The translations under genes were made by a program, and so were the position numbers. Of a stretch of 64,000 bases of DNA, positions 17,045 through 62,575 are shown in pieces (the stretch's first letter is position 1; each line of letters starts with the position of its first letter). Source of the DNA: Tubulanus polymorphus (taxonomy: Eukaryota; Animalia; Nemertea); NCBI RefSeq assembly GCF_964204645.1, contig NC_134033.1, positions 7,386,655 to 7,450,654 of the forward strand, given 5' to 3'. The notes under the pieces were generated by a model. That model was not told where the DNA came from and searched no databases. It was given only the letters and a program-made list of their open reading frames with translations.

Positions 17045-19450
17045 TTTCCTCTCCTGATGCGATGGGAGATTTAGTTTTGTAGTTTTAGAACCATTAATAT
17101 GGGAAGTTAATGGTTCAGCTGAATTTATAGTTAATGAGGATTGAGGATTCAAAATTGACGATGTAGATTCAGGTGTAGATTCATTATTCGAAATCGGTGC
17201 AGATTCAGGTGTAGATTTTTATAGTCAAAATTGGTGCAGATTCACTCTTCGAAATTGTTGTAGATTCAGGTGTAGATTCATTAGTCAAAATTGGTGCAGA
17301 TTCACTATTCGAAATTGGTGTCGATTCAGGTGTTGATTCATTAGTCAAAATTGCTGCAGATTCATTATTCGAAATTGGTGTAGATTCAGGTGTTGATTCA
17401 TTATTCAAAATTGGCGTAGATTTAGATTTGGCTGTAGTTAAGACTGATTTGCTTTTTTTAGGGGCGATATGGGAGTCTGACATCTTTAATTTAGAACTAG
17501 CTAGTGTATTATTTGACTCAGTTGATCGTTTATGTCTCTGTCTGCGAGATAATCGTGATATCTTAGAGAAAGTAGTGCTATTAGCAGTAGGCCTAGGTTG
17601 AGATAACTTTGAGAAGAGTTGAGTAATATCAATTAGATGTTTCATAATCCAATTAATCAATATCAATCTAACAAAATCAGAATAGTAAGAAATGTTCTTA
17701 AGATAAGATAATTCATTGGGAGATGAAAATACACTTGAAATATCCTTTTCATAATAGGTTGCAATGCAAGCACCAATTAATGTAGCAGGGCCACAGACAG
17801 ATGAACATGTTTGGAGTGGGTAATAACTAGTACAATTATTACTACATACATGCACTAAATTTTCAGTAACAAAATGAGGATCATGGAGGTGGATATAAAC
17901 AGGATCAGCGCAATTCAAACCTTTCAAAACAGAGCTTAAATGATTTTTAAATTCCCTAGGACAACCCCATGCTAATGTATCAGCATAACACACTTTGTTA
18001 CTTTTTGGGTAAAAAACTACTAGTGCATAATGATTGGCAACAACATGTCCATAAGAATTTAGAAATACGAAATCATTTTGGGTGCCAACATGCAGGAAAA
18101 GAATTAGTTTATCACAACTTATGAGTGGATTAGGACCGAATCTTTTATATAAATTTGAAAAATATTTCTTAGCATCAAATGTAAGTGGCATCATAAATGC
18201 ATGAATATTACAGTACTGTTCATTTATCATAGATGCAAAAGCATTTAACACAGATCCTTCAAACTATTTTTTTAGTTATCGTTAGATATAGATTAGTCAT
18301 CGTCTGAAGTTCTGGTGCAGATACGCTATTATCATTACCAACAGGAAATTGTTGAGAGGGTTTTAAGGAAAAGAGCATATTTGAAAATGCTTGAATCTGT
18401 TCCCAATCGACTGAATCAATGGGGCGTAAAGGCTTACTATTTACCCAAAGATTCATGGCAAAAAGATCTTGTTGTTTGGTTTTAGCATAATGTAAGAAAA
18501 GAAACCTATTAATCTGATCAATAGAATAGCAGCCCGTATCGAGTCTCACATGGATATTAATGGAAGGGTCACGGACAATCCTTGACTGCATCTGTGGTTT
18601 TATGTCCTCCAACTGATTTTTGTGGGGCATAGTGGGGGCATCATCAGCCAAATGACATAAATTAGACATGTCACAAATTCTGAATGACGTGACCTTTGAT
18701 GGCATAGCAGTAGGATTTTTCAAAAACTGATAGTCATTGAGGCACATTTCTGTTGGATTGTAACTAAAATTTCTTCTACATACATGTTCATCATCAGAAT
18801 CATTCTCATCACTATCATCAATTATGATTGGTTCGATACTTCCACCACCTGCGATACTTAGCTGTTTTTTGTTTTCCATCCATCTATCTTTCTGCATCTT
18901 TAATCTTTCTATCCTTTCTTTCGAACTATCTTCCTGCATCTTTTCTTCTTCCTCTATCGTTCCTTCCGAGAAATTGTCACAAGCCGCAGCCTTTCCTTCT
19001 TCCTCCATTGTCCGCCTGAAATACGCATTATCAACTCACTTTTTTTAGACATATCAATAGATAGAGTATGAAATTACCCATATAGGCCTAACATAAAAAA
19101 CATGGGTATCTCTGAGTCATTTGCATTAAGTCATTTGCATTTGTAGGTACTAAGATAATTGAATTATGTTGTACTTACATTTCAGTGTGGTTTAAACTAA
19201 CATGGTCTAGAAGATCTTTCCAATTCATGAATTCAACTCCGCAAAAACATGTCGAGTCAGCAGGATCCGTCTGTGGATGAATAACCTAATGTAGAAGAGC
19301 ACATTAATCTGTTTTTGCTTCAACATCTATGCAAAAATGACAAAAATGAACCCGCGTCTCGCAGAAAGGGCATCAAACTTACATATTCCAGTGAATTCCT
19401 TTTTCTGTTAAATCTTTTAGTATTGTGACAACTTCTATTGTAGCATCCCT
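17045..19450 (-). pseudogene. Decayed spliced gene with C2H2-like zinc finger and Ulp1/C48-like cysteine protease domain, probably transposon-borne
   Basis: ORF 17205-18251 has NHYALVVF...YADTL...QTCSSVCG (His-Asp-Gln-Cys pattern of clan CE proteases). A TTCAG acceptor at ~19016 opens ORF 18259-19008. Small GT-AG exons at ~19179-19285 (CFCGVEFMNWKDLLDHVSLNH) and ~19383-19448. Frame break at ~18255. More exon-like segments extend toward ~22200. Confidence 0.5.
17160..17420 (-). repeat. Coding minisatellite (~60-bp unit, ESTPESTPISNSESAPILTN)
   Basis: Repeated TAGATTCAGGTGTAGATTCATTAGTCAAAATTGGTGC. Confidence 0.8.
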
Positions 19451-25700: not shown

Positions 25701-25780
25701 ATAGTCCATGAGGAGAGGAAAATATTGCAAATATCCAGTTGATCTGAATTACTGGTCTATTCCAACTTGCTGTCTGTATC
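22760..25780 (+). repeat. Local tandem duplication (~1.5-kb unit); second unit continues at 42204-42637 after the Polinton insertion
   Basis: 22760-24282 aligns by eye with 24720-25780 plus 42204-42637. Confidence 0.85.
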
Positions 25781-25875
25781 AGTAATTGGAAGATGGCGTT
25801 TTCAGGCCAGAGGGCGTGAGGGCGAGACATCCCACTCATCACCACAAGTAATTTTTTTTCTTAATAAATGGGAGA
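25781..25875 (+). repeat. Left TIR (~95 bp, includes polB start codon)
   Basis: Reverse complement of 42109-42203 with few mismatches. Confidence 0.95.
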
Positions 25876-28800
25876 CAGTGAGTTCCAAACAGAAAACAAT
25901 AATGTCAATAAAAATCAATATTATTGCCAATATTGTAAAAAATACATCGATACATCTCATAAAACACGGCATGAAAAAACTGCAAATCATATAAAAAATG
26001 TAATAGATTTTGAAACTCCAGAAAATTCTAATGAAAGAAAAGAACGATTAGAAAATATGAATGTGGATGAAATAAAATGTGAAGTTTGTAATGAATTTAT
26101 AGTAAAAAGGAATTATAATAGACATCTCGAATCACAAAAACATTATAAAAATTTAAATAAAAATGTTTTAGGATTAGAATATTTTGATAATAAACCTCAA
26201 CAAGTAAAAGAATCAACTTCAAAAACAAAATCCATTTCAAATAAACCTTACATGGAAAATGTTAGAAATTATATTGATTCACTAGAAATAAAAGATACAA
26301 TTGAAATTTTAGAAACATTACATAGTAAAATTGGTCCTGCAGCTATTATATTTAGATTCTTTAAAGGTACAACAATAGAAGATTATAGTAAATTTAATGA
26401 AATAATAGAAAAAATACTAGATTTGATAACAGATGTTGAATATCCAAAAATTAGTATCTCTGGGAAAGTAAGTTTTATAAAGTCAGAAGAAAAAATGGAT
26501 TATAATATTCAAACACACTCTGAAGAAATAATTTCAAAAACACAAATAAAAGAGAAGTTAGAAAAAATATTTAATGAATTTAAACGTCATATTGAAGAAA
26601 GATATTTTGAGGGTTCTGGCTTAACATTGAATGAAATTATATATTTAGATTTAAATGTTTATAATACAAAAAGAAATAAAACATCAAAAAGTAATAAAAT
26701 GTTTAAAAATGATTCAAACTTTATAACAGAAAAAGATATGAAAGCATCAAGTTATATCAAATTACCATTTATAACAAAAGCAGTAATAAATATTCAAAAT
26801 GAAGATAATAAATGTTTTCTATGGTCAATTATTAGTTGCTTACATCCAACAGAAGAACATGTTGATAGAATAACAGATTACCGGAAATATGAAACATTAT
26901 ATAAAATTGATCAATATCCAGTAACTATAAAAATGATTCCTAAAATAGAAAAAGTTAATAATTTAAAAATAAATGTATTCGAATTAATGCAATTACCAAA
27001 GACAAAAGGTGAAAATATTAAAGATTATACATTGGAAGCTTTATATTTAACTGAATATTATGATGATGAAAATGCTATAGATTTGTTATATTACAAAAAA
27101 GATGAAAATGAACATTATATGTGGTTAAAACAAATTGATTTATTCTTTAGAACAGAAAGTGATTTTAACAGCCATAAAATTTATCTATGTAGAAAATGTT
27201 TATCTAAATTTAGAACTGAGAATACATTATTAAAACATAAAGAATTATGTGATAATAAAGATTTTTGTAAATTAATAATGCCAACAGAAAAAGATTATAA
27301 ATTGAAATTTACTAATCATAAATTTAAAAATATTGTTCCATTTGTAATTTATGGGGATTTTGAATCATTGAATAAAGAATTAACTGATCAAGATAGAAAA
27401 GAAATATATAACAAAAAGCAATTATTAAAATCAATGGATAAAGGAAGTGAATTAAATGAAGACATAATACAAGACCCACCAATTATAAATACAATTAAAA
27501 AAGTTCATCAAAGAGCTGCTGCTTATGGAATTTATATAAAATCAAATTATCCCGAATTATATGAAAGTCAATATATTTCCTTTAGAGGTGAAAATGTAGT
27601 TAATGATTTTTGTGATAAAATGATGGAATTAGAAAGTGATTTTGCAAAATTATTAAACAAAAATAAAAGAATAGTTATGACAAAAGAAGATGAAATTGAT
27701 TTTAATTATGCAACTCATTGTTGTTACTGTGAAAAACGTTTTTATTCATTTGATAAAAAAGTTAGAGATCATAATCATTTGAATGGAAAGTTTAGAGGCG
27801 CTGCACATGAGAATTGTAATTTGCAAGCAAAGAAAATCAATTTTGTCCCCATTATATTTCACAATTTATCGGGGTATGATACCCATCTATTTATAAAACA
27901 ATTATCGGGAAAATTGGGTGCAATTAATCAAGAAATAGAAGAATATAATGCTATGAATGAAGCAAATGTAAGAAAATATGATTTTAAACTATTAGCTAAA
28001 ACATCTGAAAATTATATTTCATTTCAATTTGGTTGCATTAGATTTATAGATTCATATAGATTTTTAAATAGTTCATTAGATAATTTATCAAAAAGTTTAG
28101 TTGATAATGATTTTATTATAACTCGATATTATTATCCAAATGACCAAGATTTTAAATTATTGAGATATAAAGGCGCAATTCCTTATTCATTTTATAAAAC
28201 ACACGATGATTTCAAAGAAACGAAATTATTAAAAGATCAATTTTATGATAAATTAAAAGAGGAGTATGTGAAAGACGAAGTTTTTAATAGAACATTAAAT
28301 ATTTGGAACCATTTTAAGATGAAAAATCATGGTGAATTAGTTGATTTATATTTAAAATCAGATGTTATGATATTGGCTGACATATTTGAAAAATTTAGAG
28401 AAGTTAATTTGAATCATTTTAATGTTGATCCTTGTTATTGCTACTCTAGTCCTGGTTTAACCTGGCAATGTGGTTTAAAATATACAAATGTAGAATTAGA
28501 TTTATTAAAAGAACCAGATATGGTTTTATTATTTGAAAAATCAATTAGAGGTGGAATTAGTGGTGTTATGGGAGATAGGTATTTTAAAGCAAATGATGAA
28601 TATAAATTATTATATATTGATGCCAATAATTAATATGGTTGGGCAATGATGCAACCTCAACCATATAAAAATTTTATATTAACAGAAGTTGAAAATGGTG
28701 ATAAAACTGATTGGGAAAGCGCAATTATGAGTTTAGAAGATGAAGCACCAATTGGTTATTTCTTTGTAGTTGATTTAGAATATCCTGAAAATATAAAGTT

Positions 28801-30934
28801 TAAAACAAGAAACTTACCTTATTGCCCAGAACATTTAACTGTAGATGATAGTTATTTAAGTGAATACCAGAAGAAAATAAAACCGAAAGATCATGTTTTT
28901 ACAGAAAAATTAATACTTACTCAAAATAATAAATACAATTATATTGTTCATTATAGAATGTTAAAATTTTATCTAAAACAAGGAATGAAATTAAAGAAAG
29001 TACATAGATATATTGAATTTAATCAATCGAAGTGGTTAGAAAAATATATAGATTTCAATACTCAACAGAGAACCATATCAAAAACAGATTTTGAAAAAGA
29101 TTTCTTCAAATTAATGAACAATAGTTTTTATGGTAAAACATGTGAAAATATTAGAAATAGAAATGATATTGAATTAGTAAATAATTCTGAAAGATTAAGA
29201 CATTTACAATCAAGCCCCAGACATTTACAAAATAAAAGATTTGAAGATTATTTAACAGCAGTAAAATTAAAAAGAACATCTATGAAATTTAATAAACCAA
29301 TATTTATAGGTTCAACTGTTTTAGAAGTTTCAAAGCTATTGATGTATGATTTTTATTACAATGTATTACAACCATTGTTTGGGGAAAAACATATAGAAAT
29401 TCTATACTTCGATTCTGTAACAGCTGACACCCCAATATTATTAAAATACAATAACCAAATATTAATTAGAAGAATTTCAGAAATAATTCCTAATCAAAAT
29501 AAATCTTATATTTCGTATGGTGAAAAAGAACTAATACAAATAAATGGATTAATGGATGTTTGGACAAGAAATGGATGGAAAAAATTATATAATATTATTA
29601 GACATAAAACAAATAAGAAAATCTATAGAGTTAGAACTAAATTAGGATTTGTAGATGTTACAGAAGATCATAGTTTAATTAAACGAAATGGTGATGAAAT
29701 AAAACCAACTGATATAAAAATTGGAGATGAATTATTACACAACAGATTTTACCCAAGAATGAATCATATGTCATTTGATGAAATAATTGATAATATTTAT
29801 AATATAGAACCCGAAACATTAGAAGAAAAAGAATATTTTATCAAAGGATTTTTCATGGGTGATGGTTCAGCAGGTGTGTATAATTATGTTAGTGGAACTA
29901 AATATTGTTGGTATTTATGCAATCAAGACTTAAAATTATTAGAAAGAATTAAGAAATTCTGTGAAGAAGTTTATTCAAATAAAACATTCAAAATCATAGA
30001 TGTTATGAAATCATCGCAATGTTATAGAATACATGTGAATAATCCTAAAGATTTTGCTACAAAATATAATGATGAATTCTATATTCATACAATAGTGAAA
30101 AGTAATACTTCAACAAAAGAAAAGATAGTTCCAGATTATGTATTGAATGCAAAAAATAATTTAAGAAAATGGTTCTTCATTGGATTCTATGCAGCAGATG
30201 GTACTAAAAGTTTCAAAAACCGCAAAACAATATCTTTAGCTCAAAAAGGAAAAGTTGCTATATCAGGATTAAATATATTATGCAATTCATTAGGTTTTAA
30301 TATGAATATTGGATTGATTAAATCTAAACCAAATTGCTTTAATTTAAGCCATGTAGAAAAAGATTTAACTGAAGAAGTTAAAGATTTATTTGAAATATAT
30401 AACCCAACTGACTATGTTTATGATTTATCAACAGATGATGGAACATTCAATTCTGGGTTCCCATTAATCCAAAAAAATACTGACGCCTACATATTAAAAA
30501 TCAAGACAAATGATATAACAAAAGACTTAAAAACATTGAAACATTATTTCGACTTTAGCAATTACCCTAAAGATCATGAATTGTTTAGTAATGATAATAA
30601 AAAGATTCCTGGTAAGTTTAAAGATGAATTAGGAGGTGATGAAATGATTGAATTTGTTGGGATAAGAAGTAAAATGTATAGTTATAGAACAAAAGATCAT
30701 GAAGCTAAAAAGTTAAAAGGAATAACAAAACATGTGGTTGATAAACATATAGAATTTCAAGATTATATAAAGTGTTTATATAAATCAATTGTAATGAAAC
30801 ACAAAATGAATTGTTTAAGATCAGAAGATCATGAGATGTACATTAATGAAGTTGAAAAAACTAGTTTAAATCCATTTGATGATAAAAGGCATATTTTAGA
30901 TGATGGTATAAAAACATTACCTTATGGCCATTAA
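25868..30934 (+). pseudogene. polB: pPolB (zinc fingers, OTU-like protease, exonuclease with EndoVII/HNH-like insert, polymerase, intein) with one premature stop
   Basis: Single frame with TAA at 28631-28633, where copy 1 has TTA in YIDANNLYG. OTU-like NEDNKCFLWS...HY, ExoI GDFE, EndoVII-like CCYC...RDHNH...AHENCN, motif B KLMNNSFYGK, motif C LYFD/TDA split by the intein. Confidence 0.95.
29414..30478 (+). other. 355-aa intein with LAGLIDADG homing endonuclease
   Basis: Starts SVTADTPILL after YFD, block B VTEDHSL, GFFMGDG and GFYAADG, block F YVYDLST, ends IQKN followed by Thr+1 (TDA). Confidence 0.95.
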
Positions 30935-32232
30935 AACATAAAATCAATATCATCATACTCGAAATCACTATTGGCTTCTTCATTTTCATTTAATTGTTCA
31001 GGTTCTTCTTCCATTCCATTTTTCTCATTTAAATAAAGTTCTATCTTGTTCCACATTTCATCTCGCTCTCTTTGTTTCTTTTTGTTTGTTAATTCATCAA
31101 ATGGAATTATAATATCTAGGTTTAAATAATTTACAATCTTATTTAAAAAGAATTCATAATTTATTGAATCTGTTATTCTATTTTCCAAATGATACATTAA
31201 TATTTGTTTAAATATTTTTTTTATATTTTCCATATCTTCTTCTGTTAATTTAGGTTTTTCATAATAATCGTTAAATAATAAATATAAATACATTTTCTTT
31301 TCTTTTGTGTTAAATGTTGGTGGAATAATTGTTTTTATAATATCTTTTTTAGTTATTTCACCATTTTTATTTTCTATTATTTTCATTTTTTCAAGCCATT
31401 GTATATATTCTGGTGTATGATCTTCTATAGAAAATATTTTAAAAATTTCATCAAGATAATTTAATTTTGGATCTATAAGAAAATTTCTAGTTTTTTCTTC
31501 ATCCCATAAATTCTTTTGCCATCCACAATCAACACAAAATAACACAGTACCTTCTTGTCTTAAGGTCGCATAACTACATTGTGGACATTTTCGTTTATAA
31601 TTTATTGGTAATAGATCTTCATTAAGCTCTTGGTATTTTCTTACGTTTTCTTTATGTTTTATTGTTCTATTATGTAGATTTGAATTACTTGTTGTAATAA
31701 TCAATTTACAATATTTACAATAATATGTTTTTCTTGTTAATTCATTATATTGTTTTTCTAACTTTTCAACTGTTTCTTCATTATCTGGTAACGTTTTCTC
31801 ATATTTTATTTTTTCTAATAAATTATTTTTTCTTTCATTGAATTCAGTTTCAAATTTATTAGAAATTTTATCTATATGTACTTTACGAAATTGATGATTC
31901 TCCCAATCTTCTATATTTTCAGGGCTATATTTTACTAGACAAGGCTCGCAGAAATGATCTTTTATATTATCCTTATCATAGAATAAGAAAGGTCTTTTCC
32001 AAATAACTTCAGGTTCAACTTCAGCAGAATTACTATCAACATTAGCCATTGCGCCATTAATTCTACACTTCTCTGAATGTTTTTTAACATAATTTCTTGA
32101 GAATAATTGATTACATTTTGGGCAGTTTATTTTAGGGGGTTTATAATTTTCATCATGTTTTTTCATATGTCGAGCCTTATTACTTTTTCTTAGAAGTTCA
32201 CCACAAATTTCACATGCTATCTTCTCTTCCAT
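30931..32232 (-). CDS. Multi-zinc-finger protein with C-terminal VLTF3-like (poxvirus/NCLDV late transcription factor 3) domain
   Basis: N-terminal CxxC...H fingers, zinc ribbon CPQC...CVDCG, C-terminal PKLTEE..IF..I...INYEFFLNKI...D.MWNKI resembling the remembered VLTF3 consensus. Confidence 0.6.
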   Translation of the reverse strand: MEEKIACEICGELLRKSNKARHMKKHDENYKPPKINCPKCNQLFSRNYVKKHSEKCRINGAMANVDSNSAEVEPEVIWKRPFLFYDKDNIKDHFCEPCLVKYSPENIEDWENHQFRKVHIDKISNKFETEFNERKNNLLEKIKYEKTLPDNEETVEKLEKQYNELTRKTYYCKYCKLIITTSNSNLHNRTIKHKENVRKYQELNEDLLPINYKRKCPQCSYATLRQEGTVLFCVDCGWQKNLWDEEKTRNFLIDPKLNYLDEIFKIFSIEDHTPEYIQWLEKMKIIENKNGEITKKDIIKTIIPPTFNTKEKKMYLYLLFNDYYEKPKLTEEDMENIKKIFKQILMYHLENRITDSINYEFFLNKIVNYLNLDIIIPFDELTNKKKQRERDEMWNKIELYLNEKNGMEEEPEQLNENEEANSDFEYDDIDFMF

Positions 32233-32300
32233 TTATTTAAGAAAAATTTTATTAAAATTAATTTTTAGTGATGAGCGGTAATTTCTTTATGTTATAAATA

Positions 32301-33059
32301 ATGGTAGAATTAAAAGAATACAGAATATTTATAGATTCTAGAAGGCTTACAAATTATAAATCACATAATTTACTAGTACAATTAGATAGAGAATTTAAGA
32401 ATTGTGTAGATTTAAAATTAGTTAATATAAGTTTATGTAATTCTTTTTACAATATATCGAATAAAACTATTGAACATAATACTTTTTTAATTCATATTAG
32501 AAGTATAAATAAATGGTTTAATCTATTTCTAAGACCAGGATTATATAATTTAGAAACATTATCTCAAGAAATTAATCGTAGAGCACGATTAAAACTAAAA
32601 AGTGAAGATAAATTTTTAATAAGAGTTATAAAAAGTGATAGTTCTGGTAAAATTAAAATAAAGTTAGATGATGAAAACAAACATGCATTTATGGTAAAAA
32701 AACCTATAGCTAAATTGCTAGGAATTGCACCAGATATTGTTACAGGAAACGTAGAAGGTATTTCAAATATAATACCTTTTACACACTTTTATATTTATTG
32801 CAATTTAATCGATCCTACAAAAACATTCGAAGCAACTTAAGATATAACTTGTAATTCTGGTTTACTAAACATTTTACCATTGAAGAATGTTAAAGAATTT
32901 GGAACGCAAATAAATTATAATTTAACAGAATGTGATTTCAAACCATGCATTCCTCGTTTTAATAATTTTAGATTAGAAATTAGAAATCATAATGGATACT
33001 TAATTGATTTAAATAATTTCCCTGTAATTTATGAATTAGTTATAAGATGTAAAGAGTAA
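32301..33059 (+). pseudogene. Minor capsid protein (penton, single jelly-roll) with in-frame stop at 32838-32840
   Basis: Motifs PGLYN..L..EIN, LLGI, IYCNLID. The frame continues after the TAA to ...LEIRNHNGYLIDLNNFPVIYELVI, typical of Polinton pentons. Confidence 0.7.
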
Positions 33060-33075
33060 TTTTTTTGATATATAA

Positions 33076-33417
33076 ATGAATATAACTGTTGGACCGAGTA
33101 TATGTTTTGGATTTGATTTTAAACATGCTAAAGAAATGAGAATTAAACTAAATGATGTAATTACTGATATAAAAAGTAAATCATTTAACAATGCATCAAT
33201 GATTGATAAAGAAAATTATAATATAGAAAAAGTAATTGATTTAATTAAATCACCTTTAGAATATTATGAATTAAATGAAGATGGAATTATTGATGATATC
33301 AAAAACATATTATCCAAAATATATGATAATCATAAAACTAGTAATGAAATAAATGTTGAATTAATCATAAATAAGTTAACTAAATATTTTGAAGATAGTA
33401 ATTTTTTTGATAAATAA
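33076..33417 (+). CDS. Polinton hypothetical protein (113 aa)
   Basis: ORF with the element-wide ATAAATG start context. Confidence 0.65.
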   Translation: MNITVGPSICFGFDFKHAKEMRIKLNDVITDIKSKSFNNASMIDKENYNIEKVIDLIKSPLEYYELNEDGIIDDIKNILSKIYDNHKTSNEINVELIINKLTKYFEDSNFFDK

Positions 33418-33639
33418 ATGAGTGATAATAAGTGGATAATAACTGGATTATATAATGGCGCATTACTATCAGTTGGAACTGTTGGTTATTCAATGGTATT
33501 AAAAAAAGTATTCAAAATGGGAAGTGTTAATGTTGATAGATTTGATATAAATGATATTTTAAAGTTAACATTAGCAGTTACTTTATCTAATTTAACTATT
33601 GATTATTTGGAAAAACAAAAATATATTCCTCCCATATAA
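33418..33639 (+). CDS. Small hydrophobic/membrane protein (73 aa)
   Basis: ATAAATG start, two hydrophobic segments. Confidence 0.65.
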   Translation: MSDNKWIITGLYNGALLSVGTVGYSMVLKKVFKMGSVNVDRFDINDILKLTLAVTLSNLTIDYLEKQKYIPPI

Positions 33640-33663
33640 ATGCGTAATTTTTTTGTTAAATAA

Positions 33664-34086
33664 ATGGCTTCTGCAATTATAACTATTATAGGATCGGCAA
33701 TTGTTAACGCTTTAGCATTTACTGGTGGTGGTTATTTATTTAAACATATTGATAAAAATAGTTCATTAGGAGAACAAAGAAGACATAATTTAGCGTTAGA
33801 GAAATATAATAAAGCTGCAGAAGAATATAGAGAAAAGAGACAAAACTATATGGATTACATCAATAAAGAATTATATGATCAGAAGATTTCACATAGAGAT
33901 TTTCAATCAGTTGACGATGCAATGAGTTTATATAACGCAGTAACAAATAAAGAAAAATTACATCTATACAAACCTAAATTATCAGATTATTATACCCCGA
34001 GTAAAGAACAACAGAAATATGAAATAATTTAGATTTTAGGTGGAACTGTTATTGTTATATTTGTTGCTTATAAGTTTACTAATTAG
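33664..34086 (+). CDS. Membrane-associated Polinton protein, probable premature TAG at 34030-34032
   Basis: N-terminal hydrophobic helix and coiled coil. The frame continues after the stop into a TM segment ILGGTVIVIFVAY. Confidence 0.6.
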
Positions 34087-34105
34087 TAATTTTTATTCTA
34101 AATAA

Positions 34106-34540
34106 ATGGAAGATAAAGTTGATAGTATTGATATTATTCCTCATGATATAAATAAAACTAAATTAAAAATATATTTAGAAAAACAAATATTAGAATTTGA
34201 AAGTGACTTAAAGATAAAAAAGAAAAAATATTTAAAAAGTAAAATTATATATTATTTGATTATAAGTGGTTCGGTTACAATTAGTTCTGTAATAACATTT
34301 CTAGCAATATTCAGTCCATTAACACCTTTAGCTATATCAATTGGTGTGTTAGGATTAAGTTCAAGTGTTTTAACTGGTATAAGTTCAAAATTAAATATCA
34401 AAAGTAATAAAGAAAAAATAAAATCTAATATAAAAGAAATTAATAAATTAAAGAACACACTAGATTATATAATAAGTTTAAATGGTCATATAACAGTTGA
34501 AGAACAAGATAAATTATTAAAAGAATTAATAAATTATTAA
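34106..34540 (+). CDS. Two-TM membrane protein (144 aa)
   Basis: Two adjacent hydrophobic helices flanked by coiled coils, ATAAATG start. Confidence 0.7.
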   Translation: MEDKVDSIDIIPHDINKTKLKIYLEKQILEFESDLKIKKKKYLKSKIIYYLIISGSVTISSVITFLAIFSPLTPLAISIGVLGLSSSVLTGISSKLNIKSNKEKIKSNIKEINKLKNTLDYIISLNGHITVEEQDKLLKELINY

Positions 34541-34556
34541 TTTTTTAATTATATAA

Positions 34557-35939
34557 ATGGTAGATAGTTTTCCAAAAGCTTTCCAATATAATAAATCAAT
34601 TAAATATAATATTCCAGCAATAGATTTTAATAAAGATATTACATATAGAAATGAAGTTTTAGATTCATTAACTAATTTAGAAATTTATGTTACTGAAACT
34701 AATAATTTTAATGCAAAGATGGAAAATATATTTCATGTATATTTGATTAATTTTAAAAAATTGAAAGATGAAAAACAATGGTTATTAAAATCTAATATGA
34801 AGTATTGGCAGAACCAATTAAATTTTGCTGTTTATTGTGCAACAACAGGATGTGGAATTAGTTGGAATGATCATTTGAATAATTCTAAATATAAACTAAT
34901 TCAAAGTTTATTTAGATTTCATACATACTTTCAAATCAGAATAATATTAAATGAATTAGAGTGTGCTTTACCAGGATCTAGGTATTTTAAAGAATTAGAT
35001 AATAATATTAATTTATCTAAGTTTTATAACATTTGCAATGAATTTAATATAGATATAAATAATTCTGATTTTAGAATAAAAATTGGAACAATAAGATCAC
35101 TTCCTTGCCCTAAAAAGATTGCAGAATGTTGTGCACTTCCCATACCATCTAATAGTTTTTATAATATCTATAATAAAAAATTAGGTAATGGTAAAATAGA
35201 AACAAAGGATTTAGAAACATTAAATTTCAATAAATTACCGAAATTTTATGATAATTTAAAACAAGAAAACAATAATGGTTGGGTTTATTTTATTTTAGAA
35301 AATAGTGAAGGTTTTACAAAATCAGGTATAGAAAGAATAAATCAATCTATTAGAACTTATTTGATATGTATTTTAGGCGCCCAAGTTGAAACAAGATCAC
35401 CGATAATTGGAAATGATAACACTTCATTCGATACACAAAAACAATTTAAAGTTTTATTTGAAGATTCAATTCATAATGATAAAAATAGATCGATTCCAGA
35501 AAACATTATAAGATATCAAAATTATTTAGATAAATCTCATGTAAGACTTTATTATTGTATAGGCCCTAATCTATTAATTATTTCTAATGATTTAGTATTA
35601 AAGATGGGAAACATAATTGGTTATAATAATCTAATTAAAACTGCAACAATAAATAATTCATTTGGATTGAATGATATAAATAAAAAGATTATTACTGCCC
35701 CAAAATTAATGGAAGGTGAAAAAAATAAAAAACATATTCAATCAACAGAAACTAAAACTAAGAATATTAAATTGGTTAATGATTCTAAAATAAAAGATTA
35801 CAATACATCAGAAAATAATAGAACTGATAAAATTCAACATGATATAATTAAACAAAATGATGATAATAAATCCCATGAAAATACTAAATTAGCTATAACT
35901 TGTATAGGAATTGTAATCGGAGGAATATTATATTTTTAA
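34557..35939 (+). CDS. Conserved Polinton hypothetical protein (460 aa) with C-terminal TM anchor
   Basis: Long ORF, WQNQLNFAVYCATTGCG motif, hydrophobic C-terminus. Confidence 0.75.
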   Translation: MVDSFPKAFQYNKSIKYNIPAIDFNKDITYRNEVLDSLTNLEIYVTETNNFNAKMENIFHVYLINFKKLKDEKQWLLKSNMKYWQNQLNFAVYCATTGCGISWNDHLNNSKYKLIQSLFRFHTYFQIRIILNELECALPGSRYFKELDNNINLSKFYNICNEFNIDINNSDFRIKIGTIRSLPCPKKIAECCALPIPSNSFYNIYNKKLGNGKIETKDLETLNFNKLPKFYDNLKQENNNGWVYFILENSEGFTKSGIERINQSIRTYLICILGAQVETRSPIIGNDNTSFDTQKQFKVLFEDSIHNDKNRSIPENIIRYQNYLDKSHVRLYYCIGPNLLIISNDLVLKMGNIIGYNNLIKTATINNSFGLNDINKKIITAPKLMEGEKNKKHIQSTETKTKNIKLVNDSKIKDYNTSENNRTDKIQHDIIKQNDDNKSHENTKLAITCIGIVIGGILYF

Positions 35940-35961
35940 TTTTAATTTTTTTATTATATAA

Positions 35962-37388
35962 ATGGAAGTAGAAGGTGTAGAAGATATTGGAATGGATCCT
36001 TTTGATGAACCTGGTATAACTGATGAACAACCACCTGATTTTGATGAAACAAGTTTTAATGATGGTAATGAAACAGCATATAATTCTAATTTAACTACAC
36101 CTCAATATATTGACAAAACACGTTCAAAGATAAGTATTGAAAATGAAGTACCAGAAATAACAGAAAAAGAATACAATTATAATGAAATTATTCATGAATT
36201 TAAACCAAGATTAAAAAGATCTGGTTTCAATATAACAAATAAAGGTATGGATTATTTAGTAAAAGATTTAAAATATTTAAATGGTGATTATTATTGGAAA
36301 TTGAAAGGCGACTATTATTTTAAGATTTCAAATCTTAAAAGTAGCGATAAAATAATAACACAATCAACTTTTAATTTATTTAAACCAGATAGAATTAAGA
36401 AAATCATTGATGATGTTACAACTGATGTTACACAAGAAGAAAGAGATGATAATATAAAAGAATTTAAACAAAGAAATGCTAAATTTTTTGATATAATTAA
36501 TGCAAATTTAAGACAAAAAAAAATTCCTAAAGAAGTTATTAATTCCAAAACTAGTAAACCTAATTCAAGAGAAGTTCAAACTGAAAAACTTTTACCAAAT
36601 GGATTACTTGATGCAACAAATCAACAATTAGAAGATTTAGATATATTTTCTGATAAAGCAATTAGAGAAATTATTAGTATAAGAAATGAAGCTGATAAAA
36701 TTGCGCATGATAAAAGTATAAGAGATCAAAAAATTAGAACTTTAGAAAAAGAATTAACTGATAAAAATAAAGAAATAGAACAATTAAAGTCTGATTTAGA
36801 TCATCAAGTAATTGATGAAATAGAATATAAGCAAAAAGAATTACGTTTAGAAAAAGAAATAGATGATTTAAAATATATAACATAGAATTACAAAAAAAAG
36901 AAATTAAATTATTATTAAAATCATATGATTATAATATTGATAGATTAAAAGATGTTTTTAAAAGATATCTAATAAAACCAGATTCTAGAATATCATTGAA
37001 AGATAGAATAAAATTATTATTTAAGTTTGAAGGAATAACAATTCTTTCAATTCTAACAGCTGTAACTATGTTATTTACAACAATTGGTTTAGCAATATCA
37101 AATGCTTTGAAATCTACTCCTACTCCCAATAAACCGGATAAACCTCCAGGTAATAATTCTATACAAGATAAAGTTAAAGATGGTTTAAAGAAATTAGCAA
37201 AATATTTATGGGAACTATCAAAGAAATCTGCTGCAGCTTTACCAGGAGTTATTGCTTCAATTGTTGGTTTTATATTGAAATCTGCAGGAAACATTATTAA
37301 CTTTGCTGCTGAACATATTATTTTATTTTTAATTACAGTTGTAAGTGCTATTATTTTTGGGTTAGTAAACATGATAAAAAATAAATAA
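35962..37388 (+). pseudogene. Coiled-coil protein with C-terminal TM segments, frameshift near 36880
   Basis: ORFs 35962-36885 and 36996-37388 join through a single frameshift. The second ORF has no ATG start context of its own. Confidence 0.65.
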
Positions 37389-37408
37389 TTAATTTTTTTG
37401 TTAAATAA

Positions 37409-38656
37409 ATGAGTGGGAGTTATATAAGTCCTTCTAAGATTTCTAGAATATCTAATGCTATTAAAGCAGAAAGATCACATCATATAATTACTCATAACCC
37501 TTCAAATATTAATCCTGATGAAACTTTATACGTTAGAATCCCTCGATTAACACAAAATACTTTTTATGTTCCAAATAGTATTTATTTATTTGCCGATATA
37601 AAAGTAACCGGTAATAATAATAATTATGTCGTTGATAATGTTGGAAGATATTTGATTAAAAAGTTAACAATAAAGATTGGTCCAGAAACAGTTTTCTCAT
37701 TAGATGATTATAATTTATTTATGCATTATAAAGATTTATGGTTAACTAAAGAAAACAGAAATAATATGATATTTCAAGGAATCCAATCAGAAAACCAAAA
37801 TAAATTAAGATCAGAAGCTAATAGCGCAATATTAACAAATGATGTAGATAAATTGATAAAAAGTATATATGGAAGCAAATATAAAATTCCATTAGACTTT
37901 GAATTGATAAATAATAATGCACCTTTATATAAATACGCAATTCAAGAAGATATTATATTCGAGATAACATTTGCTCCTGTAAATGAAATTGTAATATCTA
38001 GCGTTAATAAAGATATGAGTTATAAATTATCGAATATATGTTTAGAATATGATACAGTAACTGATGAAAATATTGCTAGAACAATTCAAACTCAATACAA
38101 TCAAGGATTTTCATTATTATATGATTATATTGATAAATTTAAAACTGTAACTATTAATGCAAATGATGAAATAATAAATGAGAATATTAACTTTCCTAGA
38201 AGATCTATTAAAGGTATATTAATATTTTTTACTATTGGAACGTATACTAATGGCGCAATAAATGTTGACAATTATTATAATCCTGAAATAACAAAAGTAG
38301 AAATAACTATCGAAGGTATAGCAAATAAAATATTTTGTCAAGGAATGAGAATGATTGATCAATGGGTAGAAATTAAAAAACATTTTATGAATGAAAAAGT
38401 AAAATCATTTGAAAATTGTAACATTAATCAAATTGATTATTATACCGGTAATAAATTTGCATTATGGGTAGATTTTAGAACAACTGAAGATAATTCATTA
38501 CATGGTTCTGGGAAAAAATTACAAAATACAAAAGATGGGATCCAATTATTTATGAAAAAGAAAAAGGGAATCAAAAATTTTAAAATGCATATTTATATTA
38601 TATCTGACGCACAATTAAATATTGTAAATTCACAATTAGATAGTATTCAATATTAG
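37409..38656 (+). CDS. Major capsid protein (double jelly-roll)
   Basis: 415 aa, beta-rich, placed before integrase/ATPase. THNPS.I.P.E.L.VR.P and LWVDFRT.ED..LHGSG motifs recalled from adintovirus-type MCPs. Confidence 0.75.
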   Translation: MSGSYISPSKISRISNAIKAERSHHIITHNPSNINPDETLYVRIPRLTQNTFYVPNSIYLFADIKVTGNNNNYVVDNVGRYLIKKLTIKIGPETVFSLDDYNLFMHYKDLWLTKENRNNMIFQGIQSENQNKLRSEANSAILTNDVDKLIKSIYGSKYKIPLDFELINNNAPLYKYAIQEDIIFEITFAPVNEIVISSVNKDMSYKLSNICLEYDTVTDENIARTIQTQYNQGFSLLYDYIDKFKTVTINANDEIINENINFPRRSIKGILIFFTIGTYTNGAINVDNYYNPEITKVEITIEGIANKIFCQGMRMIDQWVEIKKHFMNEKVKSFENCNINQIDYYTGNKFALWVDFRTTEDNSLHGSGKKLQNTKDGIQLFMKKKKGIKNFKMHIYIISDAQLNIVNSQLDSIQY

Positions 38657-38686
38657 AAATATAAAGTTAAAATTAAGGATATATAA

Positions 38687-39814
38687 ATGAGTGGTAAAAA
38701 AACTCCTAATACTAAAGAACAATATTTAAGAAATTTATATTACAACCCTGAGAGTTCGGTTGCTTATTCTTCTACTAAAAATATATGGCGTAAAGTAAAA
38801 CAAGATAAATTAGATAAGATAATCCCACAAAATTTAGTTAAATACAAAGATATAAATGAATTTATGTTAGAACAACCAACATATACAACACATAAAAAAA
38901 TTGTTAGAAAATATAAAACTCGTAAAACTATGGTAAGTTATGTAGATCAACAGTGGCAAGGAGATTTAATTGATATGAAAAATCTTAAAAAAGATAATAA
39001 TGATTATTGGTGGATATTGAATATAATTGATATTTTTAGTCGTTATGTATGGAGCTTCCCACTTTATAGAAAAGATGCTGCACAAACATCACATGTTTTA
39101 AGAAAATTTCTTTCAGGTGGTAAACTAAAACCAGAAAAAATTCAATTTGATGATGGAAAAGAATTTGATAATTCATTAGTTCATGGACTTTTAGATTTTC
39201 ATAATATTAAATATTTTTCAACAAAATCGGATAAAAAAGCAGCAGTTGTTGAACGATTTAATAGAACATTGAGAACAAGAATATCAAAATATTTCACAGC
39301 AAATAATACTTATAAATGGATTGATGTTTTACCAAAATTTATAGAAGGATATAATAATTCTTATCATTCTTCTATTGGAATGAAATCTATTGATGCTAGA
39401 AAACCTGAAAATGCTGAAATTGTTTGGAATAATTTATATGGAGCATTTCTTGTAGATGATTTTGGTGAACCTAAATTTAAAGTTGGTCAAAATGTTAGAA
39501 TTTCTAAGTATAAAAAGATATTTGACAAAGGATACGATCGAAATTTTACTAGAGAAATATATAAAATAAAAAAGGTAATAACAACAAAACCATATGTCTA
39601 TAAATTAGAAGATTTAGATGGTGAAGAAGTTGATGGATATTTTTATGAAGAAGAATTAAGTTTAACTACTGAAAATCTAGAACAAGAATATAAAATTGAA
39701 AAAGTACTAAAAACAAAAACTGTTAAAAGAAAAAAATATTCTTTAGTAAAATGGGTTGGATGGCCAGATAAATTTAATGAATGGATATTATCAAGTAAAA
39801 TTAAAAATATATAA
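38687..39814 (+). CDS. Retroviral-like (rve) integrase with C-terminal chromodomain
   Basis: DDE triad WQGDLID / FDDGKEF / VERFNRT, chromodomain YKIEKVL...LVKWVGWP..FNEW. Confidence 0.93.
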   Translation: MSGKKTPNTKEQYLRNLYYNPESSVAYSSTKNIWRKVKQDKLDKIIPQNLVKYKDINEFMLEQPTYTTHKKIVRKYKTRKTMVSYVDQQWQGDLIDMKNLKKDNNDYWWILNIIDIFSRYVWSFPLYRKDAAQTSHVLRKFLSGGKLKPEKIQFDDGKEFDNSLVHGLLDFHNIKYFSTKSDKKAAVVERFNRTLRTRISKYFTANNTYKWIDVLPKFIEGYNNSYHSSIGMKSIDARKPENAEIVWNNLYGAFLVDDFGEPKFKVGQNVRISKYKKIFDKGYDRNFTREIYKIKKVITTKPYVYKLEDLDGEEVDGYFYEEELSLTTENLEQEYKIEKVLKTKTVKRKKYSLVKWVGWPDKFNEWILSSKIKNI

Positions 39815-40423
39815 ATGAATAAGGAATTATTCATATTTGAGCCTCATAATATGTTAATTTCTGGTGTAACAAATTGTGGAAAAACTTATTTTATATTACA
39901 TTTATTAGAAACTGTTTATGAAAACTATTTTGATAATATAGTATTATTTTTTCCAACATATGAATTTAATCAAACTTATGATAGAAATATTACTAGAAAT
40001 AATAAATTTATTATATTAGATCCTAAAACAGTAAAAGAAAATTTAGATAATTGTATAAAAATAGCAATTGATATTTATAAAGGATCAAATACATTATTCA
40101 TTATAGATGATTGTGCTAATCTACATGATTCAAAAGTTAGAGAAAGTGAGTTATGTTATTTAGCTTTTTCTGGTAGACATTTTGGGATAACAACATGGGT
40201 TTTAAATCAAAAATATAATTCAATTGTTAAAGACTTTAGAGAAAACATTAGATTTCTAGTTTTATTCTACAATAAAGATAGAAAATCAATGAAAAATGCA
40301 CTTGAGGAAAATGATATTATTCCACATGATTTACATAATGAATATATGGATAAGTTGAAAAATATTAAAAGATCAAAATTACTATTTAGATTACAACACC
40401 CATTTAAATATGAATTTATTTAA
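39815..40423 (+). CDS. A32/FtsK-like DNA packaging ATPase
   Basis: Walker A GVTNCGKT, Walker B FIIDD, GRH and Q motifs. Confidence 0.92.
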   Translation: MNKELFIFEPHNMLISGVTNCGKTYFILHLLETVYENYFDNIVLFFPTYEFNQTYDRNITRNNKFIILDPKTVKENLDNCIKIAIDIYKGSNTLFIIDDCANLHDSKVRESELCYLAFSGRHFGITTWVLNQKYNSIVKDFRENIRFLVLFYNKDRKSMKNALEENDIIPHDLHNEYMDKLKNIKRSKLLFRLQHPFKYEFI

Positions 40424-40680
40424 ATTCAACTAGCTTGTTAATCTAGTTGAATTCTAGTTATTGGTAGTTGTAACAAAAATCAAATAGATTTAACAATATT
40501 TTAACTAGCTTGTTAATCTAGTTTAATTCTAGTTACATTCTAATTGAATTCTAGTTGTTAGTAGTTGAAACAAAAATCAACTAGATTTAACAAGAAATAA
40601 ACAAAAACACTAATATTTCAACTAGCTTGTTAATCTAGTTGAATTCTAGTTACATTCTAGTTAAATTCTAGTTGCAACAT
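40424..40680. repeat. Intergenic CTAG-rich repeat array with short hairpins
   Basis: Three copies of AACTAGCTTGTTAATCTAGTT plus many TTCTAGTT units. Confidence 0.8.
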
Positions 40681-40707
40681 CACACAATTAATTTTTTTGT
40701 TATATAA

Positions 40708-41313
40708 ATGGTAGGTGAAAAGAAAATAAAATCTAAAAATGGTGATGTTCCAATTGAAAAAACTTTAGATGATTTAGGAATAACAGAAACAAAATTAATT
40801 CCAGATGATGGTGCTTTAAATAATGTTACAACAAATAATAATTATGAATATTATCTTTATTGTAAACATCAATTAGAAATATTAATAGCATCTGGAAAAT
40901 GTAAAAATTTTGTTAGTAAAAATTTAACTTATAATGAATTAGACACAATGAAATCAGATGAAATTATTAGATTATTTAAGATTTATGAAGCCGCGAGAAC
41001 AGCTAGAATTAATGACGCGATATCAGAAAATGTAGTAAAAGGTTATAGTAAATTATGTAATTATATACTACCAATTGAAGATGAAAATAGATTATATTCT
41101 GATTTAAAAAATGATTATTTAGTTATGACTGAATTAAATAAATGGATTGGATATTTATCATTTCAATTAGGTGGATTTATGACATTATTATCAACTGGAG
41201 TTATAACATTTTCAAATATTGAAAGTAAAAATATTTCTATAATAAATGAGCGAGGTGAAAGAAGTGAAGGAATTAATTGTGAAGAAAAAACCGAGAACTC
41301 AGAAACAAATTGA
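40708..41313 (+). CDS. Polinton hypothetical protein (201 aa)
   Basis: ORF with TAATTTTTTTGTTATATAAATG start context. Confidence 0.7.
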   Translation: MVGEKKIKSKNGDVPIEKTLDDLGITETKLIPDDGALNNVTTNNNYEYYLYCKHQLEILIASGKCKNFVSKNLTYNELDTMKSDEIIRLFKIYEAARTARINDAISENVVKGYSKLCNYILPIEDENRLYSDLKNDYLVMTELNKWIGYLSFQLGGFMTLLSTGVITFSNIESKNISIINERGERSEGINCEEKTENSETN

Positions 41314-41623
41314 ATGGTCTCGACAATTAGGAATTAAATCACAAGAATATAAAAAAGCTGTAAAAGAAAAAATAAGTAGTAAAAATGTTAATAAAAATTG
41401 TGAAAATATTGTTATTTCTACTCCTTCTGATAGTAGAATATTTGATAAATATTTATATTTTACAGTTGGATTTGTAATTGTATTCATTTTGATTGGGTGT
41501 AATTGGTATAAGAAATCAAATAAAATTCATGATATTAGTAATTCTGAACCAACTGCTATCAAAAATGAAAGTACTTCTGAAATTTCAAAATTGACAATAA
41601 AAAAAAATGGATTAATATTTTAG
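41246..41623 (+). CDS. Basic single-TM protein (125 aa)
   Basis: ATAAATG start, TM segment YLYFTVGFVIVFILIGC. Confidence 0.65.
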   Translation: MSEVKEVKELIVKKKPRTQKQIEWSRQLGIKSQEYKKAVKEKISSKNVNKNCENIVISTPSDSRIFDKYLYFTVGFVIVFILIGCNWYKKSNKIHDISNSEPTAIKNESTSEISKLTIKKNGLIF

Positions 41624-41790
41624 AAAAAAAGCAAAAAAAAATAATTTTTTTTTAATTAATTGAATATTAATTGAATATTAATTGAATATCTCACTACTTT
41701 TGTCTATCTATGAGGAGCAATTAAATTGTCCAGATAAGTCATTTCGGATTCTAGATATTCATTATTTTTATTAATTTATTTTTTTTAAAC

Positions 41791-42116
41791 TTAATCAACA
41801 ATTTCTAAATCATGATGACCGTCTTCATTTTTTCCATGATAGATTATTTTAAATCCTTCTAAATCTTTTAATTCCTCTGTACTCAATGAAACCCATTTAT
41901 CAGGTAAAAATACTTTAAATTCTCGCGATGTACTAACATTACAGTAACTTAAATTAGCTGATACTTTCTCTCCATATTTAGTTTTTATCTTTTCTAATTT
42001 CAATATTTTATGTTCAATTTCTTTTGTAACATCAACTAACTTTTTTATTTCAAATTGTTTTTTGCTGGTTTTATTCTGTTATTTATTGTTGCTAAGAATG
42101 CTTTTCTATCTCCCAT
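41791..42116 (-). pseudogene. Small terminal gene starting inside the right TIR, frameshifted in an A-run near 42060
   Basis: MGDRKAFLATINNRIKPAK joins after one frameshift to QFEIKKL...KTKYGEKV...VFLPDKW (ORF 41791-42003). Confidence 0.6.
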
Positions 42117-42203
42117 TTATTAGGGAAAAAAATTACTTGTGGTGATGAGTGGGGTGTTTCGCCCTCACGCCCTCTGGCCTGAAAACGCCATCTTCCAATT
42201 ACT
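42109..42203 (-). repeat. Right TIR
   Basis: Inverted copy of 25781-25875. Confidence 0.95.
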
Positions 42204-42765
42204 TGTATCATCAGGAATATATGTAGAGATGCCGCGTTGGATCCAAATATTTGATATCAAAAAACTGACAAGGAGTTTAACTATTGTAAACTTTATTCAG
42301 ACTTAAATCATTTTCCCATCATCAGAAACACAACAATTGAGTGAATATATTTTGCATATGGTTGACAAAGAAACTATGTCGCCCTTCAGCCAAGTTCCCT
42401 CAGAATCACTATCACAGCTGATCCTTTTCCTTACCTACAAAATTAATAAGTATCAATTCAGTAGTGGCTATTTGAATTCCGAGTAATATCAGCGGATTAA
42501 TTCGATACTAACAGCAATTAATGTCTTTTCTTCGGTCTTTAAATTTCCGTTTGTTTGCTGATTACATTTATGATTCATAGATTATCAGCTGATTTACTGT
42601 AATCGATCATTCCAGTGCGATTTTGATATTACTCTTAAGGCGTTTTTATGAGCATGCGTACTCGATTCCGAGTACGTATTTCGATTACCTGCCGGGTAAG
42701 ACCGAGTACATACCCGGGTAGCCAGTTCCCATAAACGCACCTGAGTATGCACCCAGTGTTTCAAA

Positions 42766-44145
42766 ATGGCGGCAACTTCGCACGAGGAGAGGCAACGACA
42801 ACGAAGAAAATTAGCAGTTACTCTTGCACTTGATGTTTCACTCGAGAGCGGCATTCAACATGCAGTTAATTTATACGGGACAATTCAATCGAAAATGTTG
42901 AACGGATCGGAGGAAGCCTACCTTTATGATGAATTTATGAAATATGCCAAGGATCGAAATGTATGTCGAGTAGATATTTATTTAACAACAACAGTTCCAC
43001 GGTACTCGGACGAAGATTTCCGCAAGAGATTTCGTATGAACAGAGAGACTTTCCATCGTTTTTCAGAATACGTTTCTCCTAACATCGATACAGAAAATGA
43101 AATCAATGACTACAAAATAACTATACCAAAGGATACACAGTTGTAGGTGTTCATACATTATGCGGCAACAACGGACTCGTTGATCAGAATAGCTGATCTC
43201 TATGGGATATGCGAAGCGTCAGAATTCAACATCGTTGGTAAGTATTTTTAACAAATAGTCTAATATTATATTCAACCTATAAGCTGCTATTCCTAAATTT
43301 TTTTGGTTGAATTTTCAGGACTCATATCCACGATTTTGGTGAAGTATGTGATGGAAAAGGTAGTAACATGGCCCAAGGGAGAATATGCAGCTACAGTGAT
43401 GGAGGGTTTCGAACAGAAGAAAGGCTTTCCGAAAGTAATTGGCGCAGTTGAAGGTACCCATATTCCCATAAAGACACCAACAGATAGCCCGGAGGTTTAT
43501 ATCAACAGAAAAAAGTTTCATTCTTTGAATGTATGCGCCGTTTGCGATCATCAGTACAAATTTACGCAGGTTTATGTAGGATGGCCTGGTTCCAGCCACG
43601 ATGCCCGTGTCTTTAATAACTGCCCGATAAGCATTACTGCAGAGCGTCAGGATAATCGTCAAGCAATATTTCCGCAGAATTCGCATCTTCTCGGTGACTC
43701 GGCTTATGAACTCAGAGAATATGTAATGGTACCGTTCAAAGATACAGGTGGTTTAACAAGAAATCAAAAGGATTATAATTTCAAACACAGCGTTACTCGT
43801 GTTCCGATTGAAAATGCCTTTGGCATCTTGAAAGGGCGTTTAAGAAGACTGAAGTATGTTAATATGCACTATATGGAAAGACTTGTGACATTTGTTACTA
43901 GTTGTTTTGTTCTACACAACATCTGCCTCGAGACTGGCGATACATTAGAAGATCGGTTTTTAGAATTTGGAATGAATTTGCAACATAACCATGATATGCA
44001 TGAAATATATATCGCTAATATGGCTAACAGGCCATCAGCAGTAGGCAAGAGACAAGCACAATATCAGTTCTTTTGTCCACATTTGGCTAGGCTAAATTAT
44101 ATCATGCTTGAACAGTCTGTACAGAACCATTTTGTAGCATTTTAG
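42766..44145 (+). pseudogene. Harbinger (HARBI1-like) DDE transposase
   Basis: FRKRFRMNRETF, IGAVEGTHIP, GSSHDARV, LLGDSAY, RVPIENAFGILKGR. Phase-1 intron 43238-43318, in-frame TAG at 43144-43146. Confidence 0.88.
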
Positions 44146-62493: not shown

Positions 62494-62575
62494 CTTAAAA
62501 TATTCACATATATATGAATAACATTTAAATCATTGAACTTCTAAAATCAATTTTAATAAAAAATATAGTATTAAA

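Follow-up and report, generated by a model that had tools for sequence, protein, structure and literature searches.

A zinc-finger-fused VLTF3 homologue and a pox-late-like start motif in a Maverick element of the nemertean Tubulanus polymorphus

Introduction

Whether chromosomal Mavericks behave as autonomous nuclear viruses or as helper-dependent virophages is an open question, and a locus of the nemertean Tubulanus polymorphus (assembly GCF_964204645.1, contig NC_134033.1, positions 7,386,655 to 7,450,654) raises it in a specific form: if such an element encodes a viral late transcription factor of its own, whose RNA polymerase does that factor serve? The window, as the whole stretch of 64,000 nucleotides is called here, holds a complete Maverick/Polinton of 16,423 bp (25781..42203), in which a minus-strand gene at 30931..32232 encodes a zinc-finger array joined to a domain resembling the poxvirus late factor VLTF3 (vaccinia A2). 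The original prediction had proposed both the identity and the fusion, and had suggested that the product might recruit or sequester a helper virus's RNA polymerase. The VLTF3-like identity is borne out by a Pfam domain match, by hhalign profiles, by phmmer and by structural matches to VLTF3 models. The reading that we favour, at roughly even odds, is that a co-infecting pox-like virus supplies the RNA polymerase, and that this VLTF3-family factor helps it to start at a T-rich TAAATG motif of the Maverick genes.

A zinc-finger array fused to a VLTF3-like domain

The gene is a stop-free frame of 433 aa. It had been described as antisense, which holds in that it lies on the minus strand; it is convergent with the gene for the protein-primed DNA polymerase B (pPolB), with a 4-nt overlap at the pPolB end, and is not nested in any other gene. 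Translation of 30931-32232 (minus strand) confirmed the intact frame, the CPQC...CVDCG ribbon and the C-terminal sequences INYEFFLNKI (residues 357-366) and RDEMWNKI (390-397). Where several C2H2-like fingers had been claimed, four were found in addition to the C4 ribbon, all of them preceding the VLTF3-like domain and conserved in two relatives, P0002 and P0003. Finger 1 (C2H2, residues 7-26) and finger 2 (C2HC, residues 37-56) are encoded at 32065..32214 (-), and two longer C2H2 fingers, finger 3 (residues 95-119) and finger 4 (residues 172-193, U1/matrin type), at 31654..31950 (-). Finger 4 passes Pfam zf-U1 (28.9 bits, cut-off 22) and resembles the N-terminal finger of the element's own pPolB (15 of 35 residues identical), while a profile of the family matches C2H2 arrays such as CTCF in the region of fingers 1 and 2 (E 1e-7). 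The C4 zinc ribbon (residues 216-236; 31525..31587, -) aligns with the A2L/VLTF3 ribbon and is followed by a helical domain (about residues 247-404; 31021..31494, -), delimited by the Pox_VLTF3 match, a structural model and fold searches, and by an acidic tail. All five metal sites, that is, the four fingers and the ribbon, are present in P0002 (44% identical) and P0003 (33%), and the four ribbon cysteines and the core residues are invariant over 42 aligned sequences. The protein contains no LxCxE motif, and the adintovirus label 'Oncoid' was dropped for it on that ground.

The evidence supports reading this protein as a diverged VLTF3 homologue fused behind zinc fingers. The proposed Pox_VLTF3 search on the C-terminal region succeeded with the isolated domain (residues 205-411), which passes the Pfam family PF04947 at 26.8 bits (cut-off 25, E 4.8e-6), but not with the full-length protein, for which zf-U1 alone exceeded its Pfam cut-off; Pox_VLTF3 likewise went undetected on P0002, P0003 and P0004. 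The ribbon family A2L_zn_ribbon (PF08792), its usual partner, was not itself matched by the isolated domain, though hhalign did align the ribbon. A phmmer search of 1.84 billion proteins with the 433-aa protein returned 10 matches: P0002 and P0003 over nearly the full length, P0004 and P0009 over the C-terminal part, and six over the fingers only. P0009 (E 1.2e-4) is a VLTF3 of the entomopoxvirus type, with a Pox_VLTF3 match (E 1e-24), an A2L ribbon and 60-63% identity to named entomopoxvirus VLTF3. Searches by word index for homologues of residues 205-415 gave nothing, and a profile search gave P0003 only.

From the three domains of Maverick type, leaving out every known VLTF3, a profile was made that hhalign aligned with five entomopoxvirus proteins over 178 columns (96.6%, E 5.6e-10, about 25% identity) and with 33 giant-virus VLTF3 over 179 columns (93.1%, E 3.1e-7), the latter being a narrow set from one motif scan (120 loci, 72 of them usable, of which 33 were kept). 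All four reversed profiles stayed below 1%, and the entomopoxvirus and giant-virus profiles reached merely 26.6% against each other. A hidden Markov model built from eight giant-virus VLTF3 scored the 433-aa protein at -16 bits, yet its positive control reached only 3 bits. In an 18-row tree the three Maverick-type proteins cluster (93/92) outside the entomopoxvirus clade (98/97); the tree has three groups and is unrooted, so it names no donor.

A model predicted from the 42-row alignment reached pLDDT 84 (38.6 for AlphaFold on the single sequence). Five of its eight BFVD matches with E <=0.001 are named VLTF3 or late factor, the best at TM 0.62, and the top ones are the cowpox and entomopoxvirus VLTF3 models; this agreement is partly circular, since 38 of the 42 alignment rows were VLTF3. 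Among solved structures, in which a sequence search found no VLTF3, the helical part scored best at Z 6.3, a tie between cyclins and chain M of a pre-initiation complex, which we take to be TFIIB; none reached Z >=8, and Foldseek against the PDB gave no match with E <0.001. The model is thus suggestive of a helix arrangement like that of the cyclin/TFIIB core. A profile or structural match to VLTF3 had been named beforehand as the test of the prediction, and such matches were found.

The divergence itself invites another explanation, namely that the element uses a helper's late factors and that its own VLTF3 is a dominant-negative protein tying up the helper's polymerase or its partners, thereby lowering helper yield. 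Identity to entomopoxvirus VLTF3 of only about 25% would suit such a decoy, as would the fact that just one of the three vaccinia late factors is encoded, the other two having no Pfam match among the element's ORFs (open reading frames); virophages can also curb their helpers, according to the accounts available. The ribbon cysteines and core residues do not vary, as one would equally expect of a functioning factor, and we consider a decoy improbable. The suggestion that the protein might 'sequester' the helper polymerase found no specific support.

In one genomic run, reads that are mostly 90-99% alike cover all 30 bins of the gene about 150-320 fold, which indicates that members of a multi-copy family regularly carry it. 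Of 53 read differences in the gene 40 were listed, three of them outside the frame, and none of the 37 listed in-frame differences creates a stop. A metagenome scan for the gene found two loci, L121 and L122. L121 has the same tail-to-tail layout, with a pPolB that is uninterrupted and intein-free, and retains the VLTF3 ribbon, core, gene position and start motif at 44% protein identity; L122 contains the VLTF3 gene alone. The flank beyond the element in L121 (6360-6508) presumably resembles a RhoGAP exon, in which case this relative would sit in a host gene. No relative of the fusion gene was found in viral contigs.

A shared start motif

Of the element's 15 ORFs that are 90 aa or longer and not nested, 12 start at TAAATG, compared with 35 of 629 other ATGs (p 2e-12). 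The three others are the pPolB piece that follows a stop, an antisense shadow frame, and a gene at 32301 in which TAAAT lies three bases farther upstream. At the VLTF3 gene the motif, which consists of a T run, a spacer and TAAATG, occupies 32230..32252 (-), and it recurs before the ATGs at 25868, 33076, 33418, 33664, 34106, 34557, 35962, 37409, 38687, 39815, 40708 and 41246. Base positions were tabulated for 14 hand-picked gene starts, among them a 73-aa ORF and excluding the post-stop pPolB piece, antisense shadow frames, a frame at 37068 and the right terminal repeat. Thirteen of the 14 have TAAATG, with T at -11 in 13/13, T at -10 in 12/13 and AA at -15/-14 in 13/13; other TAAATG sites used for comparison have T at -11 in 14/33 and at -10 in 10/33. 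Overlap of a stop with a start was ruled out as the origin of the motif, the TAA being the stop of the upstream gene in only 2 of 13 cases.

Published descriptions of vaccinia late promoters give a core containing T, a 5-7 bp spacer and TAAAT(G), with a T at the 10th base upstream (PMC5294985, PMC11980589), and the late genes of an entomopoxvirus have been called by TAAATG (PMC3061580), as far as the available text of these papers goes. Judged by its letters, the element's start motif matches this described layout. Among 12 control pPolB elements from viral contigs, none with a VLTF3 match, 11 have TAAATG at only 6 of 115 ORFs altogether. The motif also starts 5 of 69 giant-virus VLTF3 genes and 4 of 11 ORFs in each of two entomopoxvirus loci; both starts in L121 (2/2, with a T run) and the single one in L122 (1/1) have it. 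The exact consensus was found in 22 viral loci; tblastn relates none of them to the element, and each has at most three TAAATG starts. Tests for depletion of AATAAA, GTAAG and T5NT did not separate the element from the controls. Other pPolB elements, L126, L133 and L136, seem to share a start context of their own that is A-rich and often TAAAAAATG.

The twelfth control, L125 (IMGVR_UViG_3300020002_000020, 1-9034), has TAAATG at 6 of 6 ORFs and no VLTF3 in its 9 kb; it is the nearest control by integrase among the seven compared. L125 is a polinton-like contig of 38% GC, and its integrase carries a long N-terminal extension without a Pfam match, which we take to be protease-like. The presence of the motif there without VLTF3 would fit a different explanation, in which TAAATG is a lineage-wide context for translation starts (A-rich, with the in-frame stop as a guard) and VLTF3 is accessory cargo serving, for example, nucleic-acid binding in replication; the likeness of finger 4 to the pPolB finger points the same way. 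Conservation at a fixed distance 10-16 bases upstream, in contrast, exceeds what a start codon needs, and the retention of the gene's ribbon, core, position and motif in L121 also speaks against it. This explanation, too, seems to us unlikely.

The polymerase gene and its intein

The pPolB gene (25868..30934, +), whose product has N-terminal zinc fingers, carries an in-frame stop at 28631-28633 in this copy; its two pieces are 69% and 87% identical to the L121 pPolB. Residues 257-611 of the second piece form a LAGLIDADG intein of 355 aa (29414..30478, +), inserted between YFD and TD in the catalytic motif of pPolB. It is also present in a second Maverick copy (86-95%) and absent from the L121 pPolB. 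Viral contigs yielded 37 relatives of the intein, the best two of which are 42% identical over the full 355 aa and lie in contigs named as giant-virus genomes. The 20 of the 37 that were inspected sit in long ORFs at an equivalent insertion motif (18 at YGD/S and 2 at VGD/S, the slash marking the insertion), and these host ORFs are family B polymerases by motif. Intein homing requires donor and recipient DNA to be together. Given giant-virus relatives and this requirement, the Maverick lineage and a large DNA virus probably once shared a cell, and past co-replication with such a virus is suggested. The giant-virus contigs that bear these relatives have 0-3 TAAATG starts among 1-9 ORFs each, and are therefore not the apparent source of the motif. 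Nematode polinton pPolBs with HNH or VSR insertions have been reported, and the literature searched on inteins in polintons mentions intein-like insertions in their pPolBs in general terms only. An intein is unusual in a chromosomal element whichever reading holds.

Which RNA polymerase?

The use of a helper polymerase is supported by the VLTF3 homology, by a motif that precedes almost every gene of the element and is rare in other pPolB elements, by the mavirus precedent and the occurrence of PLVs (polinton-like viruses) in entomopoxvirus occlusion bodies, and by an intein closest to those of giant viruses. The start motif would serve as the promoter for a pox-type RNA polymerase of viral origin, and the integrated element would remain mostly inactive in the absence of an infecting helper. 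Lying under the same motif, the VLTF3 gene would owe its first transcripts to the helper's late factors, after which positive feedback could set in. The ribbon and helical domain may act on the polymerase in a TFIIB-like manner, and the fingers, which entomopoxvirus VLTF3 lacks, may tether the factor to the element's DNA or RNA and so bias the helper machinery towards the element's genes. By the same reading, put at about even odds, the element would live in the manner of mavirus as an endogenous parasite of a pox-like virus, supplying a late initiation factor itself. Recruitment of a helper polymerase, as originally suggested, gains independent support, not part of the original prediction, from the pox-late-like motif before almost every gene, and loses from the occurrence of VLTF3 in viruses without an RNA polymerase.

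Several further points weigh against this reading. T at -10 is absent from both entomopoxvirus VLTF3 starts and from L122, a sister Maverick (at about 62,500) starts its pPolB at TAAAATG rather than TAAATG, and L125, with its little T run, indicates that the motif need not accompany a VLTF3 gene. The Maverick VLTF3 proteins branch deeply rather than within the entomopoxvirus clade, and the nearest inteins lie in other giant viruses, whose genes mostly lack the motif, so that no single helper is indicated. Among the in-frame read differences, the synonymous share is 10/37 against 21% expected (p 0.23), a bias among copies that is not significant. Finally, mriyaviruses and ariadnaviruses keep VLTF3 while lacking an RNA polymerase, and are presumed to be nuclear, according to the available parts of the sources (PMC11253617, 10.64898/2026.08.29.747986).

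This last point is also the main strength of a competing explanation, in which the Maverick is an autonomous nuclear element: a self-encoded TFIIB-like factor, its fingers bound to the shared motif, would bring in the host's RNA polymerase II without any helper virus. The predicted resemblance of ribbon and cyclin-like helices to TFIIB, middling at Z 6.3, is in keeping with it, as are the high copy number and integrating habit of the family, and the title of a cited paper has host TBP targeting vaccinia late promoters. But the motif runs directly into the start codon, as it does in the late genes of poxviruses, which would leave no usual 5' untranslated region; the VLTF3 gene itself depends on the same motif; and 11 of the 12 other elements show no enrichment of it. 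We regard such a switch as rather doubtful, clearly less probable than the helper reading, though a good deal less remote than a decoy or a translation-start context. If true, the protein would show how VLTF3 works in viruses without an RNA polymerase.

The element and its surroundings

The element has a GC content of 23%, against about 36% in its flanks. Its terminal inverted repeats (25781..25878, +, and 42106..42203, -) are 98 nt each and 95% identical, and it is bordered by copies of a 6-bp target-site duplication, TGTATC, at 25775..25780 and 42204..42209. The left repeat contains the motif and the ATG with which pPolB begins. The start motif is found in the right repeat as well, where the frame after it runs for just 23 codons; this motif points inward, and the frames behind it (41700-42110, -) are broken by stops, possibly a decayed gene. 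A probable major capsid protein (37409..38656, +) is proposed from size and position, its Capsid_N match being weak and below the cut-off (E 0.012), and it has no relative in the viral contigs. It is followed by an rve integrase with a chromodomain (38687..39814, +; Pfam) and an A32-like packaging ATPase (39815..40423, +; Pox_A32 E 1.7e-12). Inverted repeats, the 6-bp duplication, a pPolB (interrupted in this copy), the rve integrase and the A32 ATPase together identify the element as a Maverick/Polinton; no penton or adenain protease was recognised among its ORFs. Two more of its genes (32301-33060 and 35962-37388) look broken, with open frames that run on past stops or in another frame. Reads in three of four runs span a junction from 25774 to 42204, but the flank is itself a repeat, so other copies of the flank may be their source.

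A second copy of the same family lies at 1-4300 of the window (-), with a pPolB 94-95% identical and broken elsewhere; the window edge precedes its VLTF3 gene. A third Maverick, at 62450-64000 (+), belongs to a sister family (pPolB 73% identical). Directly to the right of the element is a Harbinger-like transposase (42766-44145; DDE_Tnp_4, E 3e-33), and farther on an LTR (long terminal repeat) retrotransposon (45141-52860, 50% GC) with a gag of 462 aa, a pol of 1240 aa and end repeats reported identical across 300 nt. At 17205-19008 (-), ORFs of 341 and 249 aa without a Pfam match lie inside a tandemly repeated stretch.

Relation to known systems

VLTF3 in polintoviruses is reportedly traced to work by Krupovic and Koonin in 2016, which is the source cited for it and may describe this very lineage. 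It is in any case already in print (PMC11131425, section 8; the figure key of PMC8502044; clusters of polinton-like viruses, PLVs), as is, in the available text, gene transfer from egoviruses to polintons. The statement in PMC11253617 that VLTF3 does not occur outside Nucleocytoviricota therefore appears too strong, to judge from the parts of these sources available. The original remark that this is not a canonical Polinton core gene stands insofar as VLTF3 is reported as an accessory gene, but its presence in polintoviruses is not new. What appears to be new here is the combination of the VLTF3 gene with a pox-late-like motif and an intein; no account of the pox-late motif in Mavericks was found in the literature searched, whose coverage left out most subscription journals and preprint supplements.

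The protein resembles poxvirus VLTF3 (PF04947 with PF08792) in having a C4 ribbon followed by a helical domain, and the entomopoxvirus VLTF3 genes likewise start at TAAATG. It differs in about 200 extra N-terminal residues with the four fingers, in the acidic tail, and in being encoded by an integrating element without an RNA polymerase. The polintovirus and PLV examples (coral, PMC11131425; MELD viruses, PMC8502044; Zephyrvirus PLVs, 10.64898/2026.06.19.733378) share an accessory VLTF3 in a small bamfordvirus; compared by description only, their available accounts mention no zinc-finger fusion, promoter motif or mechanism. Entomopoxvirus-associated PLVs (PMC11296320) are Maverick-related elements linked to poxviruses; they came from occlusion bodies, two lack an integrase, and the main text and one supplement do not mention VLTF, motif, promoter or intein. 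Mriyaviruses and ariadnaviruses, in the available text, differ from the Maverick in also carrying VLTF2, in lacking a DNA polymerase and in belonging to Nucleocytoviricota.

The model for the helper reading is mavirus, the endogenous virophage of CroV, which is likewise integrated, has pPolB, an rve integrase and a capsid, and places its genes behind a motif like that of a large virus's late genes. Its promoters match the CroV late motif, and a late factor of the helper has been proposed as the trigger (10.1101/068312, available text); another PLV uses its helper's early motif (10.1101/2022.07.28.501842, likewise). The CroV motif is TCTA rather than TAAATG, the helper is proposed to supply the activating factor of mavirus whereas the Maverick encodes one, and helper dependence has been shown for mavirus but is inferred here.

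Implications

Taken as a lineage, these chromosomal Mavericks may be endogenous virophages of a pox-like virus, with all genes on pox-type late promoters, a zinc-finger-tethered late factor of their own that redirects the helper's polymerase, and an intein acquired from the polymerase of a large virus; we advance this broader claim tentatively, with less confidence than the helper reading of the protein itself. A vertebrate Maverick survey, in its available text, raises virophage-like immunity merely as a possibility (PMC8097293). If the claim is true, the many integrated copies would form a circuit that infection switches on, possibly a heritable defence against viruses, and the absence of Maverick particles from uninfected hosts would be accounted for. 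Promoters of helper type ahead of almost all genes, combined with a late factor that the element itself encodes, are a sequence signature that can be screened for across genomes, and the motif, VLTF3 and the intein together make this element a good test case for the helper dependence of chromosomal Mavericks.

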